Source: Octopus vulgaris
Taxonomy: Eukaryota
Direction of reading: 5' to 3'
NCBI GenBank assembly: GCA_951406725.2
Contig: OX597821.1
Coordinates: forward strand, 73,594,001-73,658,000
Length of the DNA: 64,000 nt
Below the pieces are notes generated by a model. That model was not told where the DNA came from and did not search any database. It saw only the letters and a program-made list of their open reading frames with translations. The translations under genes were made by a program, and so were the position numbers. Positions 3,620-60,827 of this stretch are shown one piece after another. How positions within the stretch are numbered: position 1 is the stretch's first letter; each line of letters opens with the position of its first letter.

Positions 3620-4850
3620 TCTGGTCATCCCATAAGTTCTGTCCGAATTTTGAATAAAGAAAACAAGTGAACAAATGTTATATTTAATTGGAATTTAATC
3701 ATCAATGTACCTTCCCTGATTATCTATGACTTCCTTCCATCTCTTTGCGAGCTTTTTAATCCCATCAATGTAAAACTCTTTTGGTTTCAAAGCGAAGAAC
3801 GTTGAAATGTCAGTCTCGACCTCCTCCTGGCTTGCGAAAGTTACGTCCCCCAAATGATTCTGTAAACTACGAAACAAATGGTAGTCTGAAGGAGCAAGGT
3901 CGGGAGAATATGGTAGATGAGGATTTTTTTCCAACCAAGCTCTTCGGTCTTCTGTGATGTGATCTTTGCAGTGTGGGATCGCGCATTGTCCTGACGAAAC
4001 ATCACTCCTTTTCGATTCACTAATTGCTGACAGTAGACTTGAGCATTGATTGTTACATTAGATGGTAACAATTCAAAGTGAATTGCTCCTTTGCAATCCC
4101 ACCAGATAGAGAGAAGAACCTTTTCCCCATGAAGTTCTCTTCTCGTTAGTGGTTGAGCTTTTCCCCTTTTACCAAGCCACTGTTTACGACGTTTAACATT
4201 TTGATAGAAGATCCATTTTTCGTCATCAGTCACAAGTCTATCCAAAAAGGGTGAAATGAGTTCGCGAGAATGGAGAGAAGAGCAGATGTCAACTCGGGAT
4301 TTGTGGTTCCTTTCGTACAATTCATGAAGAACCCATTTTCCAACTTTAGTAACTTTTCTAAGTTGTTGAAGATGACGATGGACAGTTGTATGGTTTGAAC
4401 TAAGCTTTATGGCCAATTCTTCAACTGATAATGCAGGATGTTCTTCAAGTAATGCCTCAAGGAGCTTGTCATCAAACTCAACTGGACATTCTGTTTGGTC
4501 TTCATCTTCAAGGCTGAAATCTCCACTTCTGAATTTTGCAAAGCATCTTCTGCAAGTTCTTTCATTCAAGTATTCTTTCCCATAAACTGAGTGCATGATT
4601 TGAGTTGCTTCGGTTTCTGAGTTTCCTTTTTTGTACTCATAAAGCATTATGTGCCTCAAATGCTCTTTGGCTACTTCCATTTTAGAAAAGGGTTTTAATT
4701 ATATTATTCTGTAAAATAATATTTAATTAGTTTAAATGTACACAAATGTATAAAGATAATTTTTCATTCCATTAGACATTCTAAAATACTATTAAATTTC
4801 ATTCACTTTTAAAAAAGGTCAAATCGGACAGAACTTATGAGATGACCTGA
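3620..4850 (-). mobile_element. Mariner (Tc1/mariner, DD34D) DNA transposon, near full length, inactivated
   Basis: 27-bp TIRs TCTGGTCATCCCATAAGTTCTGTCCGA (3620-3646) and TCGGACAGAACTTATGAGATGACCTGA (4824-4850) with 2 mismatches. TA target duplication at 3618-19 and 4851-52. Transposase lies inside. Confidence 0.95.
3695..4680 (-). pseudogene. Mariner transposase pseudogene
   Basis: ORFs 3841-4680 and 3695-3934 carry an HTH region, WVLHEL (WVPHEL), TDDEKW, QDNA and YSPDLAPSDYHLF. There is a frameshift in the A-run near 3925 and an apparent in-frame deletion between YCQQL and VNRKGV. Confidence 0.93.
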
Positions 4851-9554: not shown

Positions 9555-9835
9555 TTTTATGCGCCCTTTTCAAGCCCGGTTTTCCGGTTTCTGTGGCGTA
9601 TGTCTTCCCCCCAGCTGGACGGGACGCCAGTCCATCGCAGCGTTACCCAAGAAACAAGAAGAAAGAGTGAGAGAAAGTTGGGGCGAAAGAGTACAACAGG
9701 GCTCGCCACCACCTCCTCGTCGAACTTTAGGTGTTTTCGCTCAATAAACACACGCAACGCCCGGTCTGGGAATCGAAACCGCGATCCTCCGACCGCGAGT
9801 CCGCTGCCCTAACCACTGGGTCATTGCGCCTCCAC
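9555..9835 (-). mobile_element. SINE family C with alternative 3' tail
   Basis: Head matches 56033. The 3' part (ggacgggacgccagtccatcgcag on +) differs and recurs at ~17450-17525. Confidence 0.75.
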
Positions 9836-10299: not shown

Positions 10300-10490
10300 G
10301 AGGTGCAATGGCCCAGTGGTTAGGGCAGCAGACTCGCGGTCGTAAGAACGCGGTTTCGATTCCCAGACTGGGCATTGTGTTTATTATTGAGCAAGAACAC
10401 CTAAAACCCACGAGGCTCCGGCGGAGAGGGGTGGTGAACACCGCTGTACTCTTTCACCACAACTTTCTCTCACTCCTTCTTCCTACTTCT
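10300..10490 (+). mobile_element. SINE family C, 3'-truncated
   Basis: Matches the 5' half of 56033-56398. Confidence 0.78.
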
Positions 10491-12376
10491 GCCACAAAGC
10501 AGAGGAACCATAGTGTAACCCACTATGGTGTAGTAAACTTTCAGACCCTAGTCTAGATTGCGAATCCTCTGTACCCCAGGATGGTTCAGCTCTCCACCCG
10601 TTAAAAGCCACCGTTTATGGAATGAGGATAACAACGTAGCTTTCGCGCCCGTGCAACCGCCAGTTATCGCGTGTTCTTCAAGTTGCTACACGCATTCTTA
10701 GTAGCTTAGTGGCTAATGGCGTGAGTCCTGATTGGAAGAAGACAACAGCAGCAACAACAACAAAAACTAATTTGACTGTGTCAGTTATGGAGAATAATAA
10801 CTGCATTTGATAAAAGCTTAAGAGGAATTGTTGTTGTTTTGTTGTCGATTTGTCTCAGGTGAATCACGATTAAACTGAACAATAGTCAGAGACTCTTAAA
10901 CTGCGACCATCTTTGCTTTCTTTTTGCTTTTTCAGAAACAGTGTAAGACTAGATTTTTTTTTTTTAATATGTTATTTTATTTTCAAGATAGATTTAGCTG
11001 CTACTTTAGTAAGCTGCAAGTTTAAGAAGCTCCGTTTTCGGTCGCCAAGCTTCTAAGAATTATCGTGTGCTGAGATTTTAATCTCGTTACTAACTGAATA
11101 AAATACGTGAAGTAAAAGCGCTTCGAGTGAAAATCAAACCAATTATCAAATTTAGTTCCCAAGGAGCTTACAAAAGACACCAGCAGGAGTGTGTGTGTGT
11201 CTGGAGGGTTGAGAGAACGAATGGGCAGTTTTTCCTACTAAGCTGTGTCGGTGTCTAAAATATGGGCGAGTTCAAGTCTTTGGGGTTAATAATATAAATA
11301 CTAAACATGCATTGAGTGGATTACATCCCTCCCTCGCAACTCATTATTGACTCCAAATATTGCTGCCATATCTGATCACACACACACACACACACGCATA
11401 TATAACTATATATACGCACACAGAGATAGAAATACATGTACACTTACTAATACACGTCCACCTCCTTTAGGAAGGCACAAACCAAAACTAAAGAAAAAAG
11501 AAACACAAATAAAGAATAATTAAATAATAAATAAAAATGTTTTCTGGCCATAGCTTGGCAAGAGGCCGCTAGAGAGCCATAAATGACAATCCAGTTAGCC
11601 ATATAACCAAATTGAGAATTGCAATGGCGGAGTGAGTGCGTGTGAGCCTTAGTTAGATGTGTCTTGTGTTTTCTATAATGTGGCTTCTGTTTGTATATTA
11701 CGTAGCCATTACCAACCTTGAAATGGAACAAAGTGTCAACACCAAATATTGTACAAAATTGTGGAGGAAAAAAGAAAAGCAAAATAAAAAGAAAAAAAAA
11801 TGTTACTCAAACAACAGCGAAAGGAACGGCAAAACATCTTTGCTTGTATACAAAAGAAAATATTTCTATATATATATATATATATATAAAAAAAAAAATC
11901 TGAAATGCCTTGAAGGGTTATTGACAAAGCATAAATATTTTTCCTCGGTCATATTTTTGCAAAACTTGGAAAGAAAAGGAGAGAAAGAGGGGCAAAAAAC
12001 AGAAAATAGGGAATAAAAGCGGAATGAGTATATGGGAAGAATATACATGCATTATATATATATATGAAAAGGTAAACAGGTAGATCTCTCTCTCTCTCTC
12101 TCTCTCTTTCTATATATATATATATATATATATATTCACACACACACACGTTAGGCAGCAAAAAGAATTCGTTAGTTAGAAAGACAATTGGATCATTAGA
12201 TAATGAAGTTAGATAAAAACGTGAAATAATTTATTTATAGCTTCATCTACTTCGAGTTCCATCGTTAAAAACGAAGTATTTCATGTTCTATCGAAGTATC
12301 TAAATCCGTATGATATAGACAACATTCAATGTCGTTGGTATGAACAGAATTTCTAAAATGGAAATCGAAATTCGAA

Positions 12377-30834: not shown

Positions 30835-32017
30835 CATACACACAAATATTCTATAATTATAAACATAATTATAGAATAATTGCATAATTTTACCTCAAAA
30901 GGTTATTTTAACGTACCGAACTACTTGGTAAAATTATTAATTAGTTAATTAATTAATTTTACCCTTTTATTATTATTGAAATTATATATATATATATATA
31001 AATAGATAGACACACGCACGCACGCACACACATGCATATGTATATGTGTGTGTGTGTGTGTGCGTGTAATTATATATGTGTATGTGAGTGGGCAAGTGTG
31101 TGTGTGTGTGTGTGCGTTTCAGTGTGAATGTCTTTGAGTGTTGGTTTGTTTATATCCTCGTTACCTTGTAGTTCAGCAAAAGGAACCGATAGAATAAGCT
31201 CCAGACTTAAGAAAGAAAGTCCTGGGGTCGATTTATACGAGTAAATCTTCGTAGCGATGCACCAATATGGCCGCAGTCCAATAACTTAAACGAGTAAAAG
31301 ACTATACCCAGTCCACAATATATTATGTTTTGCATGTAGTCAAAAGAAACCTTGGACAGAGTACAGCTAAAGGGATGATTCCGCCCCAGCAGTAGCAATG
31401 AGACACAAAATAATGGTTGGGAATAAGTTATTCAGAAACGAGAAGAAGCAATTTGCTTTAAGTAAAGAAAAAAGGGAAAAAATAAACAAAAAGTTTAAAA
31501 CAACAACAACAACAACAGCAGCAACAGCAACAAAATGAGGTTCTCATCTGGTAGTGGGGATGTCTATGTAATAATATATTGTCCGAAGAAGCAACCAGTG
31601 TAGGACAGATTTTGAATCGTTGGACGTATGTGGCGTGAGAAAAGATGGCAGCCATTGATGAAACTAGGCGGGAAACTCACCAAGTACAAGTTGTGAAGTC
31701 AAGAACAGCTGAGAAACATCATCTTGCTTTGCTGAAGCTGAAAATGCGAGCCTCTTGACGTGCAAAATAACTGTCAGTCAGAAAACGTTCTTTTCAATGT
31801 CCGAACAATGAAAACTGTGACTGTTTCAACATTTCTTCCGGCTCAGTTCCACATACCTATTAGTCCGTTCACGGATTTTATACATTATGCATCAAATAAT
31901 GTAATTTCATTATTTTTTTATATGAATTTTTGTTTTCTTTTTGCCTTCTTTGTTTTTGTTTTAACGCTATTAAACAAAAAACAACACTAAAACGCAATGC
32001 ATCCTAAATATATATAA

Positions 32018-47008: not shown

Positions 47009-48095
47009 TTGGGTCATCCTATAAATAATGCGTTTTTTAAATACTTCTTTTCTTTTTCAAAATCAAGATAAACAAAGTTCTTTTTTTATCTAAAACATAC
47101 TCTCTTCCATTTTCTACATCTGGTAGGCTTACAAGGCCCCTCTTCCAAAATTCACTTGTCTGTGACGAAAAATACTCCTCCGCTACTGTTTGGCTTCGTC
47201 TACAGAATTCATATTTTTTCCGTCCAAATGATTCTGAAGACTGCAGAATAAATGATAATCAGATGGGGCAATGTCCGGCGAATGTCATCCTCGCTGTACG
47301 TGGCCGAGCATTATCCTGATGGAAGAACACCTTTCGTCTTGAAACCAAAGATGATCCTTTTTCTTTTAACGCTAACTTAAACCGCTCAAGTTACTCTCAG
47401 TAGATCTCCTTTGTTATCGTTTGATTTGGGTTTAAAAGTTCAAAGTGGCTAAACATATCTGACCAAACCATACATGGAAGACCTTGTTCAGCCTGAAGTG
47501 ACAGCAAAGAAGAGCACGCATTCACTCTCTGCGTGCGATTAGATTCGGAAAGTTTGTGAGGAACCCATTGACCCAATTTGCCGATTTTTCCGAAGGCACG
47601 CAAGTGTCGATGAATAGTTGAATGTTCAAATCCAAGCTTCTCTGCTAGTTCCTCAACAGTCATGATGGGATTTTGCTCCACCAGAGTTTGCAGGATGTCT
47701 TCGTCGAGAGCTACAGATCTTTTAGGACGAGACTCGTCTTCTAGGTTGTAGTTTCGGGCTCGGAATTTTTGGAACTGCCGCTGACACTGGCTTACGCTTA
47801 TTGTCCGATTCTCATATACTGCATTAATATTCCTCACACTTTCCGTTGCGTTGTTGCCATTATTAAACTCATAAAACAAAATATGCCGAATGTGCTTCTT
47901 TATCACTTCCATTATAGCTTTGAAAAAATAGCTGTTAAAACTGAATTGCACTCTTTAAAACTTGCACTAAGAATAAGGACAAGCTAAAATTACTACCTGG
48001 TTTTATAGCATATTGATGCAGGTAGTTTATCCCGTTCCCCTCCGACTTTTAGTTCATGCAATTGAAAAAACCGCATTATTTATAAGATGACCCAA
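47009..48095 (-). mobile_element. Second mariner element (different family), internally deleted
   Basis: TIRs TTGGGTCATCCTATAAATAATGCG (from 47009) and CGCATTATTTATAAGATGACCCAA (to 48095), followed by TA. The left TA has mutated to CA. Confidence 0.92.
47080..47912 (-). pseudogene. Mariner transposase pseudogene
   Basis: MEVIKKHIRHILFYEF...WVPHKL in ORF 47397-47951. Downstream frames give FFHQDNARP and SPDIAPSDYHLF. The first catalytic-D block (TGDEKW) is deleted, and there are stops and frameshifts. Confidence 0.9.
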
Positions 48096-56032: not shown

Positions 56033-56398
56033 AATGGCCCAGTGGTTAGGGCAGCGGATTCGCAGTCGTAGGATCGCGGTTTCGATTCCCAGACCGGGCG
56101 TTGTGAGTGTTTATTGAGCGAAAACACCTAAAGCTCCACAAGGCTCCGGCAGGGATGGTGGTGATCCCTGCTGTACTCTTTCACCACAACTTTCTCTCAC
56201 TCTTACTTCCTGTTTCTGTCGTACCTGTATTTCAAAGGGCCGGCCTGTCACTCTCTGTGTCACGCTGAATATCCCCGAGAACTACGTTAAGGGTACACGT
56301 GTCTGTGAAGTGCTCAGCCACTTACGCGTTAATTTCACGAGCAGGCTGTTCCGTTGATCGGATCAACCTCGTCGTCGTAACCGACGGAGTGCTTCCCC
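56033..56398 (+). mobile_element. tRNA-derived SINE family C
   Basis: A box TGGCCCAGTGG and B-box-like GGTTTCGATTCC. The same head occurs at 10300-10490 (+) and 9555-9835 (-), and in decayed form at 38235-38425 (-) and 44070-44260 (-). Confidence 0.82.
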
Positions 56399-56400
56399 AG

Positions 56401-56439
<39 letters not shown>

Positions 56440-56440
56440 C

Positions 56441-56498
<58 letters not shown>

Positions 56499-56694
56499 AA
56501 TACTAAGTAATTAAGGGTTTAGCAACGAATTGCCTCACCAACACACCGAATTTAGAAATAGCAGTCAAAGAGATATAGCTATTCCTTCTACTAAAAGGGG
56601 GATCTCAGTAAAAACACAGCACTTAAAAGGCAAACACAGACAGGTAAGAAAGAAAGAATGAAATGACGGCAATCCATCATGCAATTTTAAGTTA

Positions 56695-56786
56695 CCTACG
56701 GACGTACGTTTCGAGATCAAGTTTTAGGATATCATAAGAATTAGAAAATTCTACTTTACCCAGACTTCTTCTCTCATCGGCGCAGG
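56695..56786 (-). ncRNA. Inverted copy of the 57417-57508 hammerhead
   Basis: Reverse complement of 57417-57508 within the inverted arm. Confidence 0.78.
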
Positions 56787-57416
56787 ATACTACAATTGTG
56801 AATAATTGTATATTAAATTTTGAGATACTAGAATGCGTCATCTCAACTCAGTGTCAGAGCGAGCCAAAGCATGACCAGTACCACGAAATTCAAAGTTTGA
56901 ATGAAAGTTTGTGTCACCGTAACTTAAAATTGCATGATGGATTGCCGTCATTTCATTCTTTCTTTCTTACCTGTCTGTGTTTGCCTTTTAAGTGCTGTGT
57001 TTTTACTGAGATCCCCCTTTTAGTAGAAGGAATAGCTATATCTCTTTGACTGCTATTTCTAAATTCGGTGTGTTGGTGAGGCAATTCGTTGCTAAACCCT
57101 TAATTACTTAGTATTACTTAAATTTTCCTCGAATGGGGCTTTTACATACCGAAATCTACTTGGTGTAATTGATAATTATCCCTAATTAATTAATTTCACC
57201 CTTTTATTATTACTGATAACCATATTTTATCCCAGTAAATGACCACAGCATTTTGTCTTGGCTACACGCGGGTGGAAGGGGGCTGGTGACACAAACTTTC
57301 ATTCAAACTTTGAATTTCGTGGTACTGGTCATGCTTTGGCTCGCTCTGACACTGAGTTGAGATGACGCATTCTAGTATCTCAAAATTTAATATACAATTA
57401 TTCACAATTGTAGTAT

Positions 57417-57508
57417 CCTGCGCCGATGAGAGAAGAAGTCTGGGTAAAGTAGAATTTTCTAATTCTTATGATATCCTAAAACTTGATCTCGAAACGTACG
57501 TCCGTAGG
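57417..57508 (+). ncRNA. Type I hammerhead ribozyme (U4C core variant)
   Basis: Stem I CCUGCG/CGUAGG, core CCGAUGA, stem II GAGA..UCUC with structured insert, GAAA, palindromic stem III AC-GUAC-GU. Predicted cleavage after GUC at 57502. Confidence 0.8.
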
Positions 57509-57805
57509 TAACTTAAAATTGCATGATGGATTGCCGTCATTTCATTCTTTCTTTCTTACCTGTCTGTGTTTGCCTTTTAAGTGCTGTGTTTTTACTGAGA
57601 TCCCCCTTTTAGTAGAAGGAATAGCTATATCTCTTTGACTGCTATTTCTAAATTCGGTGTGTTGGTGAGGCAATTCGTTGCTAAACCCTTAATTACTTAG
57701 TATTACTTAAATTTTCCTCGAATGGGGCTTTTACATACCGAAATCTACTTGGTGTAATTGATAATTATCCCTAATTAATTAATTTCAGCCTTTTATTATT
57801 ACTGA

Positions 57806-57847
<42 letters not shown>

Positions 57848-57877
57848 CATACATACATACATACATACATACATACA

Positions 57878-57911
<34 letters not shown>

Positions 57912-58149
57912 CATTATATATATATATATATATATATGCTTTCGGTGCGGACTATATGATTTGACATTAAACGAATTATGAGATGAAATCTCTCTCATAA
58001 GGCTGAATACTTTGTTTCATTTCGACTTTGGCTGTCATCCTTTCGGAGTCGACTAAATAAGTACCAGTTATGCACTTGGGTCGATATAATCGACTATCAC
58101 CCTCCCTCAAATTTGCTGGCTTTGTGCCAAAATTTGAGGCTAATTCTTT

Positions 58150-59620
58150 CAAATGGACTCTAAACGAACTAGCAAGATTAGACGAGAGAGCAAAGAAAAT
58201 AATGATTGCATTTAGAATACCCGATATCTGACACTGAAAAACTACACCTACCTCGAATTCAAAGGTAGTAGAAGTTTTATATAACTAGAAGATTCTAACA
58301 AAATATTCACTGTAGGACTTCAGAAATATCTTGCACGGAATCACAGACGTTTTCTTTTTTTACAAATAGCTAAGATACATAAGCAAAGCATAAAAAACCC
58401 AAACAACTTTCTGTCTTCAATGAAGTCAACAGATACGAAACAGAAGCTACAGTCACAGATAATTGTAAAGAAAAATGATGAACAGAGATCGTGAATTAGT
58501 TAAATTCTAAACCAAAATTAGGGCTATAGCATGTTTTGGTTAACCGATGGCAAGAAAAGCCCCTACATGGCCAATACTGGAAAATACTGAATAGTTGAAA
58601 CAAAGGAAAATGTAATAGTAAAATTTATCACTACTTAAGATATTTACCTTGAGAGAATCTCTCATATGGTTTTGTGGTGCTTATAAGCACTTCTAGTTTA
58701 CATCGCTAGCGAGAGACTATCACTGCCCTCCCCGCTGCCAGAACTAACAAATCACGTCATTTCGGCCTTCTTTGGCCTTGTCAGCAGTAGATGCCTGATT
58801 GCTGGAAATTGCAGTAACCGTCCAACCAGGTATCGCTAAAAGCCAGTGGCAGAAGCTGTATTAATACCAAAAGGTAAAAGTTATCGCCACTTCAGTGGTT
58901 GTAAGTTTTATCTTTTGGTGTTAATACTGCTTCTGACGCCTTAATTATCTTTTAAAGAAAAAAATCTCAATAGTGGCTGAAAAGCGTAGAGACTGAAGGG
59001 TTTTTCTTTGTGACCCAAGATCGAAACCTTCCCCACCCCAAGAGAAACCACCAAAACTTATTATGAAGTAGAATAAAGTAATTGTAGAGTGTGTAGAGAT
59101 GGGAGAAGAAGCAGCTATATTATCTCTGGCTGATCAATCTTAGCCAACAGACGTATACCAGAAAACATTGCTGATAATAGCGAAGCAATCATATTGTGGG
59201 ATATGCCAATACACAGAGAGAGAGGAGATCAAGGCTAACCGACCAGATATTGTTGCCAATGCCCACCAGGAAAAGATATGCCTCCTAATCGGCATATCTG
59301 TTCCAACCGATGGTCATGTATCTTTGAAAGGGATGGAGAAGTTATCCAAATATAAAGATCTGGAAAGAGATATACCCCGATTGTTAGGACCTGAAAACAG
59401 AAGCAATCTCTATAATTATATGTGCTTTGGAGAAAAATATGCAGATCAATACATAACCAGAGTTCAAGGATTTAATCAGAAAATAACACTGCTTGGCAAT
59501 ACAAACACGCTACATATGACACTTTTATAATAGTAAAAATAGTAAAAACCTAAACAAAGCACCGTAAATACCGAAGAGACACAGAGATTCGCTCGGTTGT
59601 GTAGTAAAAGTCCGCAATAA
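58150..59620 (+). mobile_element. Older R4/Dong-clade LINE fragment with internal insertion
   Basis: WTLNELARLDERAKKIM and SDTEKLHLPR (post-RT region), then EIKANRPDIV..KLSKYKDLE (59168-59530). Followed by a (TAA)-type tract at 59617-59680. Unrelated insert at ~58590-58960. Confidence 0.8.
58850..58935. repeat. ~86-nt hairpin
   Basis: CAGAAGCTGTATTAATACCAAAAGGTAAAAGTTA vs TAAGTTTTATCTTTTGGTGTTAATACTGCTTCTG. The loop region also pairs (CCACT/AGTGG). Confidence 0.8.
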
Positions 59621-59699
59621 AAAAAAAAATAATAATAATAAAAATAAAAATAATAATAATAATAAAAATAATAATAATAAGTCGTAGTACCTGACAACT

Positions 59700-60712
59700 A
59701 TGAAGAAAAAAAAGAAAAAATAACAAAAGCTGTAAAACAACTGAAATCCAAACTAAAACTGGAACAGCAACGGATCATGATAAAACGATGCCAAGAAAAG
59801 CCCCTACTTTGAAAGTACTGGGTTAAAATAAACGCAAAATAAATAAAGCAAAATCCTAATAATGGCTGAAAAGTTCAGGACTCAAAGCAGAAACTGAAGG
59901 ATTTTTAATTGCAGCCTTCCCACCAGAAATTGCCCAACAGGTTAGACTATTTATTTTAAGTACCAGTGAAACACTGGGGGCTGATGTAATCGGCTCATCC
60001 CCTCCCCCAAAATGGCTGCCCAAAACATGTAATGAAAAGAAACACAAGTAACTGCAGAATATGTGGAGATGGAAAAGACACAATAAATCATATTATCGCT
60101 GGCTGCCCAGTCCTGGCTAAGAAGGAATATATTCACAGGCACGACAGAGTTGGGACCTATGTACACTGGAAGCTATGCCAACACACTGGAAAAACAACAG
60201 AAAAAAAATGGTCCAGGCACACGCCAGAAAAAGGTCACAGAAAATGAGAAAGCAACCATACTATGGGATATGCCAATACACACAGATAGAGAAATTAAGG
60301 CTAACAGGCCAGATATAGTTGTTAGAGATCACCAAGAAAAAAGATGCCTTCTCATCAATGTATCAATACCAAAAGATGTCAATGTTTCTCTAAAAGAAAT
60401 GGCGAAAATTTCAAAATACAAAGACCTGGAAATAGAGGGTACTCGAATGTGGAATCTAAAAACAGAAGCAATTCCTTTAATAGTAGGCGCATTAGGTATA
60501 ATAAAAAAATATTCAGACAAATACATAACAAAAACACAAGGATTAACATATATAAAAATAGCACTACTAGGCACCGCACACATCCTACGTAAAACACTTT
60601 CAATAGGTGAAAATAAGAGCACCACAAGAAACCACAGCACATACACAAGGCACACAGAGCTGCACTCGGTAGTGCAGTGAAAGCACATGATAAAAATTAG
60701 ACTATTGTATAA
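59700..60712 (+). mobile_element. R4/Dong-clade non-LTR retrotransposon, 3' fragment (CCHC zinc knuckle + restriction-like endonuclease)
   Basis: WLKSSGLKAETEGFLIAA, CRICGDGKDTINHIIAGC, RHDRVG, ILWDMPIHTDREIKANRPDIVV, KISKYKDL and IVGALG. Frameshifted. Ends in TAATAATA. Confidence 0.9.
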
Positions 60713-60827
60713 TAATAGTTTCAAATTTTTCCACAAGGGCAGCCATTTTGGGGGAGGGGATGAGCCGATTACATCAGCCCCCAGTGTTTCACTGGTACTT
60801 AAAATAAATAGTCTAACCTGTTGAGTG

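Follow-up and report, generated by a model that had tools for sequence, protein, structure and literature searches.

The window analysed here, a stretch of 64,000 nucleotides from the genome of Octopus vulgaris, carries a composite insertion between two TA microsatellites: a 424-bp inverted arm, a 589-bp unit and a 302-bp partial repeat of that unit (Table 1), giving a head-to-tail array of 1.5 units. The inverted arm is the reverse complement of 57285-57708, with identity at 424 of 424 positions, and the partial repeat returns to 56919-57220 at a spacing of 589 with a single mismatch in 302 (C57199 against G57788). An earlier description made from the letters of the DNA (the sequence-only reading) had reported this arrangement and called the unit protein-free, and both statements are confirmed. 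The unit has a GC-content of 36.7% and its longest stop-free frame encodes 67 amino acids; the two element frames within the set scanned (150 of 154 filtered frames in the window) gave no Pfam match, and no coding remnant is recognisable in the six frames of the unit. No target-site duplication is readable because there are TA microsatellites on both sides.

Table 1. Features of the insertion and of a related fragment in the 64,000-nucleotide window.
Feature	Position	Strand	Basis or remark
Left (TA)n microsatellite, insertion target	56402-56494	.	TRF, sequence
Inverted 5'-truncated arm, unit 367-589 plus 1-201	56495-56918	-	3' end (site A, unit 201) adjoins (TA)n
Second hammerhead motif copy, within inverted arm	56695-56786	-	Descriptor match, core start 56780
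Blunt junction of two 5'-truncated arms	56918/56919	.	Direct array start = equivalent of 57508
589-bp non-coding unit	56919-57507	+	Predicted strongly self-paired as + strand circle
Type I hammerhead motif	57417-57508	+	Descriptor, folding; variants in relatives
Partial tandem repeat, unit 1-302	57508-57809	+	301/302 identical; 3' end (site B) adjoins (TA)n
101-bp one-sided 'tail', site A to site B, absent from inverted arm	57709-57809	+	
Possible 74-nt intron, putative	57508-57581	+	Motif scan alone
Right (TA)n/(TACA)n microsatellite, partly TACA	57810-57936	.	TRF
Older diverged solo 'tail' fragment, unit ~195-298, ending in (TA)n	30879-30979	+	78% over 105 columns, E 4e-16

The hammerhead motif of the unit has a stem I of 6 bp (57417-57422 with 57503-57508), followed by a core at 57423-57429 that reads CCGAUGA, as against the canonical CUGAUGA (a U4C substitution). 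A stem II of about 60 nt, closed by 57430-57433 and 57487-57490, leads to GAAA at 57491-57494 and to a GUC whose C17 is base 57502, so that the predicted cut falls between 57502 and 57503. A descriptor of the motif matched twice when both strands of the 64 kb were scanned, once in the unit and once in the inverted arm, and in none of 3,000 dinucleotide shuffles of the unit. At gathering score Rfam matched nothing in the window (the 12 weak matches include no hammerhead), and scans of metagenome contigs, viral contigs and prokaryote genomes for the ribozyme pattern returned no match.

Folding predictions for the monomer give stems I and II pair probabilities of 0.94-1.0 and stem III a probability of 0.0, with the active hammerhead fold 3.9 kcal/mol above the minimum free energy. 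Stem III comes from a perfect palindrome of 8 nt; two copies of it are predicted to pair with each other at -11.2 kcal/mol. Cleavage is therefore predicted to need a dimer, given that stem III does not form in the monomer; a dimer-type design with a palindromic stem III has been described for metazoan hammerheads (PMC4209133; PMC6765202). The U4C change considerably lowers activity in vitro, with viroid infectivity still possible (PMC3088659), and in Xenopus eight of nine predicted retrozyme dimers were not cleaved in vitro (10.64898/2026.07.22.740005). Because of the U4C core and the missing stem III in the monomer, cleavage in the young U4C subfamily may be inefficient or absent. The 'well-paired type I hammerhead' of the sequence-only reading thus stands as regards the motif, the predicted cut after 57502 and stems I and II; it does not extend to stem III or to a canonical core.

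Folded as a circle, the + strand of the unit is predicted to reach -151.3 kcal/mol, compared to -123.1 +/- 5.8 for shuffled sequences (z -4.9; none of 60 as stable), and stems I and II are retained in that fold; the value for the minus strand is -114.6 kcal/mol. In a read-through transcript of the whole insertion the inverted arm is predicted to pair with all 92 bases of the ribozyme, whereas stems I and II form if the arm is left out.

The unit, or part of it, is present in 20 of the 24 public sequencing runs listed (these 20 coming from 9 studies), and at least half of its words are found in 18. One of the runs, X19, which is labelled as a second organism, contains a fraction of 0.47 of the words. 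Four of the 20 positive runs (X1, X2, X3 and X6) were aligned, the records all being contigs, to one non-redundant unit (57058-57646), yielding 10, 1717, 7 and 131 contigs, respectively. No RNA run is listed among the carriers of the unit, a result without bearing on expression, and the 'RNA?' labels attached to X1, X3 and X6 are conjectural. X2 is possibly the source of the assembly and is then not independent of it; its contigs fall into identity classes of 99% and above, 95-99%, 90-95% and below 90% with 536, 698, 412 and 71 members. A contig of 473 nt in X1 shows zero differences from the unit, and one of 506 nt in X3 shows three and crosses the head-to-tail joint, a joint that recurs in diverged form in X2 and X6. 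From the aligned contigs and the joint in these three runs it follows that the unit belongs to a multicopy family, with young and older members, that closes on itself at 589 bp; a genomic tandem and an RNA circle give the same head-to-tail joint in contigs. Neither of the two skip joints in X2 was used, since two loose ends of that run resemble a library linker. Differences in depth along the unit were also left out of account, contig depth being unsuited to ranking its parts.

The contigs also bear on the ribozyme. Relatives with the canonical U4 at 57424 number eight in X2, one in X3 and four in X6, and those with an A at 57420, which converts a G.U pair of stem I to A-U, number 12, one and four in the same runs. 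Predicted pairs of stem II would be lost through the variants at 57432 and 57473, unless their partners covary among the 27 variant rows that are unlisted. Loose ends in X1 and X3, at 57478 and 57444, come from related families that share the ends of the ribozyme and differ in distal stem II, which suggests that the long stem II may be a variable module.

Divergence within the insertion amounts to one in 726 aligned bases, or 0.14% (95% interval 0.003-0.8%). At a substitution rate quoted for an octopus of 0.0036 per Myr (PMC13282606), the insertion would be about 0.2 Myr old and at most about 1 Myr, an estimate that depends on a divergence which gene conversion or assembly polishing could lower. 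It is from this near-identity that we infer the family may be active.

The two arms of the insertion end at different places: the direct array at unit position 302 (site B) and the inverted arm at unit position 201 (site A), leaving a one-sided extension of 101 bp. Other copies end near these two sites. One X3 contig runs into (TA)n at 57218 (unit 300), which is site B, and one X6 contig starts at 57112 (unit 194), which is site A, after (TA)n and a flank whose sole near match in the window is without an adjoining TA run. The old fragment at 30879-30979 covers only the interval from A to B and has TA at its end. Together these data provide three ends per site, a small sample, and a microsatellite target is seen at both flanks of the insertion, at the old fragment and at the two contig ends. 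The tail of insertions made by Penelope-like elements (PLEs) is usually 30-40 bp (Craig et al., 10.1101/2021.04.23.441226; Schostak et al., PMC2377424); at 101 bp the one described here is about three times as long. In vitro, the PLE known as PAc starts reverse transcription at two internal sites that bound the tail, and both strands of AT-rich DNA are nicked (PMC11167929). Classical L1 twin priming was considered and rejected: the arms would overlap by 201 bp, or be separated by a 388-bp gap on a multimer, and two internal priming sites fit better.

A partial tandem, an adjacent inverted and 5'-truncated copy, a tail at one end and a microsatellite target make up the described pattern of PLE insertion (Craig et al., 10.1101/2021.04.23.441226; Schostak et al., PMC2377424 Fig. 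1C), and each has its counterpart at the octopus locus (for the tail, a one-sided extension of greater length), where the partial tandem and the inverted, 5'-truncated copy lie side by side in an AT-rich microsatellite. Canonical EN+ PLEs (Penelope of D. virilis, PMC2377424; PAc, PMC11167929; PMC4209133) are alike in all four respects, with an AT-rich target, and the hammerheads in PLE pLTRs have the palindromic stem III in common with the octopus hammerhead (PMC4209133). The octopus element differs in having no RT/GIY-YIG ORF, a tail of 101 rather than 30-40 bp, a hammerhead that is not of the minimal type and an intron that is putative; it is not an autonomous EN+ PLE. Likeness extends to the Chlamys PLEs of Chlamydomonas (MRC1, Chlamys-N4; PMC8557442, PMC9977147), some of which are also non-autonomous with pLTRs and head-to-tail insertions, and microsatellites serve as targets for Chlamys and Naiad elements, (TA)n in the case of Naiads (PMC8557442, PMC9977147). 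Unlike the octopus unit, Naiad and most Chlamys elements are described as being without hammerheads, and the non-autonomous Chlamys families share their 3' ends with an identified partner, whereas no partner was found in the octopus window.

Close comparison is also possible with the non-LTR retrozymes of animals (Cervera & de la Pena 2020, PMC7229834; Li, Clavereau & Pollet 2026, 10.64898/2026.07.22.740005). The octopus family has a type I hammerhead (in the U4C variant), one per unit, in a short, non-coding, multicopy tandem with a GC-content below 45-50%, and, by prediction, a highly self-paired monomer in which stems I and II are kept; the self-paired circular fold and the proposed movement by PLEs are also features of the described retrozymes (PMC7229834). 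At 589 bp it exceeds the 150-450 bp given in PMC7229834 and lies inside the 51-972 bp of Li et al. (2026, 10.64898/2026.07.22.740005), who treat retrozymes as non-autonomous derivatives of PLEs. It departs from them in its U4C core, its stem II of about 60 nt and the single ribozyme per strand at this locus, and it is known from sequence alone. A full PLE scar, made up of inverted arm, one-sided tail and TA target, is present as well; in the text consulted of PMC7229834 and 10.64898/2026.07.22.740005 no such scar is described for retrozymes. With Repbase, subscription papers and supplements outside the scope of the search, we found no paper reporting inverted arms plus tails for retrozymes and, in the literature on octopus and cephalopod hammerheads and retrozymes, no description of the family; the words 'hammerhead' and 'ribozyme' have no occurrence in the main text of an octopus repeat annotation (PMC13282606). 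A catalogue entry for it, under the name of a Penelope repeat, may already exist.

A Pfam scan of 150 of the 154 filtered frames in the window detected no frame of an RT/GIY-YIG PLE that could be the autonomous partner, and returned pieces of mariner-type transposase plus two weak zf-RVT matches. The mariner-type remnants lie at 3844-4698 (-) and 47400-47954 (-), with HTH_48 in both and Transposase_1 in the first. Broken remnants of a non-LTR retrotransposon occupy about 58150-60700 (+), within which 59183-59640 and 60250-60717 are 70% alike; in their motifs they are akin to the R4/Dong type and are not a PLE. A perfect 87-bp inverted pair (59935-60021/60737-60823) brackets a LINE-like RT C-terminal fragment with a weak zf-RVT match (59990-60244), and could be another young inversion event. 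The window is otherwise dense in TA/CA microsatellites and dispersed repeats. These include a 292-bp direct duplicate (52582-52873/54653-54940) of 96% identity, partly microsatellite, and, just left of the insertion, a dispersed repeat at 56033-56218 that is about 86% identical to 9650-9825 and 10307-10491 and SINE-like in appearance; ARAGORN found no tRNA in the window, this repeat included.

On the basis of the repeats, the contigs and the PLE literature, the view of the locus as part of a young, multicopy, non-coding hammerhead family with a Penelope-like layout is supported. The insertion is probably a young copy of a protein-less 589-bp hammerhead family. The family itself is likely to be a non-LTR retrozyme that a Penelope-like RT/GIY-YIG protein moves in trans, and so a non-autonomous type of PLE. 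One might suppose instead that the unit derives from an autonomous PLE, as its pLTR or by deletion, and was amplified together with it, rather than being an independent parasite propagating as an RNA circle. The proposal draws on Xenopus, where 24 of 57 retrozyme families match known transposable elements, 21 of those 22 elements being PLEs, at their pLTRs (10.64898/2026.07.22.740005), and it overlaps with the retrozyme reading, given that any deletion derivative able to close on itself counts as a retrozyme. Even so, we think it unlikely: the unit closes head-to-tail at 589 bp both here and in three other runs, its six frames contain no recognisable coding remnant, and the listed loose ends resemble diverged family sequence, TA flanks or linker and not an ORF. 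A different concern is that the inverted arm is an artefact of assembly or of fold-back, as might be suggested by its 100% identity and by the fact that none of the three joints listed is a strand-change joint for the arm (contigs show presence, not absence). However, the arm is asymmetric about the junction; its 3' end borders on TA, at a site shared with other copies, and the tandem joint is found in independent runs; an artefact is very improbable.

How a retrozyme moved by a PLE protein could have come to lie here can be set out as a series of steps, which as a whole we consider probable. A source locus of several units elsewhere in the genome would be transcribed; two hammerheads would pair through their palindromic stem III and cut some of the junctions at the GUC, producing linear multimers, monomers and possibly ligated circles. 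A helper PLE protein, acting in trans, would nick a (TA)n tract on both strands, and reverse transcription would start inside the RNA at two sites some 100 nt apart, site B at about unit 302 and site A at about unit 201. The outcome would be a direct cDNA of 891 nt and an inverted cDNA of 424 nt, the two being joined bluntly at 56918/56919 through their truncated 5' ends, and the interval from A to B would be the one-sided tail. Since both cDNAs cross an intact cut site, the template would have been an uncut junction of a multimer or a religated circle. An active retrozyme locus has been defined as one with two ribozymes (Li et al. 2026, 10.64898/2026.07.22.740005); the present locus has one per strand. 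Because of this, and because the read-through transcript is predicted to be buried in a 424-bp hairpin, the copy is probably a dead-end daughter and not a source, and monomers are probably not made from it.

A separate question is what set the start of the direct array. The sequence-only reading had placed this 5' junction at the ribozyme cut, with the array starting at the equivalent of 57508 or, allowing for microhomology, of 57503. The simple reading is the first of these, 5 nt past the predicted cut, and the join there is blunt and free of microhomology; a start at 57503 requires an extra deletion of 4 nt. That the junction reflects ribozyme cleavage is not established. There is one such junction, it is 5 nt off, and the other 5' junction of the insertion, that of the inverted arm, lies 218 nt upstream of the cut, the arm reading through the cut site. 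By chance, a single junction would fall 0-5 nt downstream of the cut in 1% of cases, and at least one of two would fall within 5 nt of it on either side in 3.7%; both figures are post hoc, with n=1. None of the 19 loose ends listed (of 101 in the aligned contigs) lies at 57503-57508. Base 57508, moreover, forms the last pair at the foot of helix I and supplies the G of a donor-like GT.

Three explanations may be weighed. Should the array start be the ribozyme-cut 5' end of a linear multimer, with the next hammerhead uncut and 5 nt lost in end joining, then a once-cut linear template would allow up to 896 nt of cDNA from site B, and 891 are observed; the chance values just given also speak for it. 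Were the junction signal genuine, it would point to a linear multimer cut once rather than to a circle, because circular RNA has no terminus there. Yet besides the post hoc single case, the remote start of the inverted arm and the empty interval among the listed loose ends, the core carries U4C, and the dominant substrate of PAc is uncut RNA, with zero RNA-seq reads ending at the cut (PMC11167929). That the cut determined the start of the array we regard as rather unlikely, if a serious candidate. The fuller proposition, in which dimeric hammerheads cleaving a linear multimer set the 5' ends (891/896 nt) and two internal Penelope-type priming sites 100 nt apart set the 3' ends, is unlikely.

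The explanation towards which we lean, with some reserve, is that nothing more than ordinary 5' truncation placed the start at 57508, whether at random or through a pause of the reverse transcriptase at the foot of helix I, where G57508 forms the outermost pair. Truncation at the 5' end is typical of PLE insertions (Craig et al., 10.1101/2021.04.23.441226), the second junction of this insertion bears no relation to the cut, and helix I has a pair probability of 0.94-1.0. Against this, the enzyme traversed helix I twice in the same event, once in each arm, and a coincidence of 1-4% is left over. The position of the junction exactly at TAG|GTAACT, the joint-best donor score among the 34 GT sites of the unit, raises the possibility of splicing, reverse transcription of a lariat intermediate having halted at the first nucleotide, a 2'-5'-linked G, of a 74-nt intron. 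A tract of 83% pyrimidine fits this suggestion, as does a branch-like site placed 23 nt ahead of the first AG (57580-57581); 5' introns are retained in PLEs (Craig et al., 10.1101/2021.04.23.441226; PMC2377424), and there is a likeness to the 75-bp intron of D. virilis Penelope (PMC2377424). However, the AAG acceptor is weak, the D. virilis intron is described as ending on the 5' side of helix I and not after it (PMC4209133), and X3 record 17 spans the whole region unspliced (X3 is possibly DNA); a splice joint from 57507 to 57582 is not among the three joints listed, in contigs that show presence and not absence. A splice-derived start appears improbable.

Taken alone, the locus is one further member of a described class; its points of interest are the long tail, the U4C subfamily and a junction that can be tested. 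The role of the hammerhead in PLEs has been described as unclear (Craig et al., 10.1101/2021.04.23.441226), and the basis for the mobilisation of retrozymes by PLE proteins is co-occurrence and pLTR similarity (10.64898/2026.07.22.740005; PMC7229834). A young and abundant retrozyme family with a complete PLE scar is suited to testing both questions by mapping the ends of its copies, and the family provides a natural comparison of U4C with U4. If it is true that copies record both ends of their template, this would constitute in vivo evidence that ribozyme cleavage defines the template of retrotransposition and that PLE proteins mobilise retrozymes, evidence that could be read from thousands of copies in one genome.
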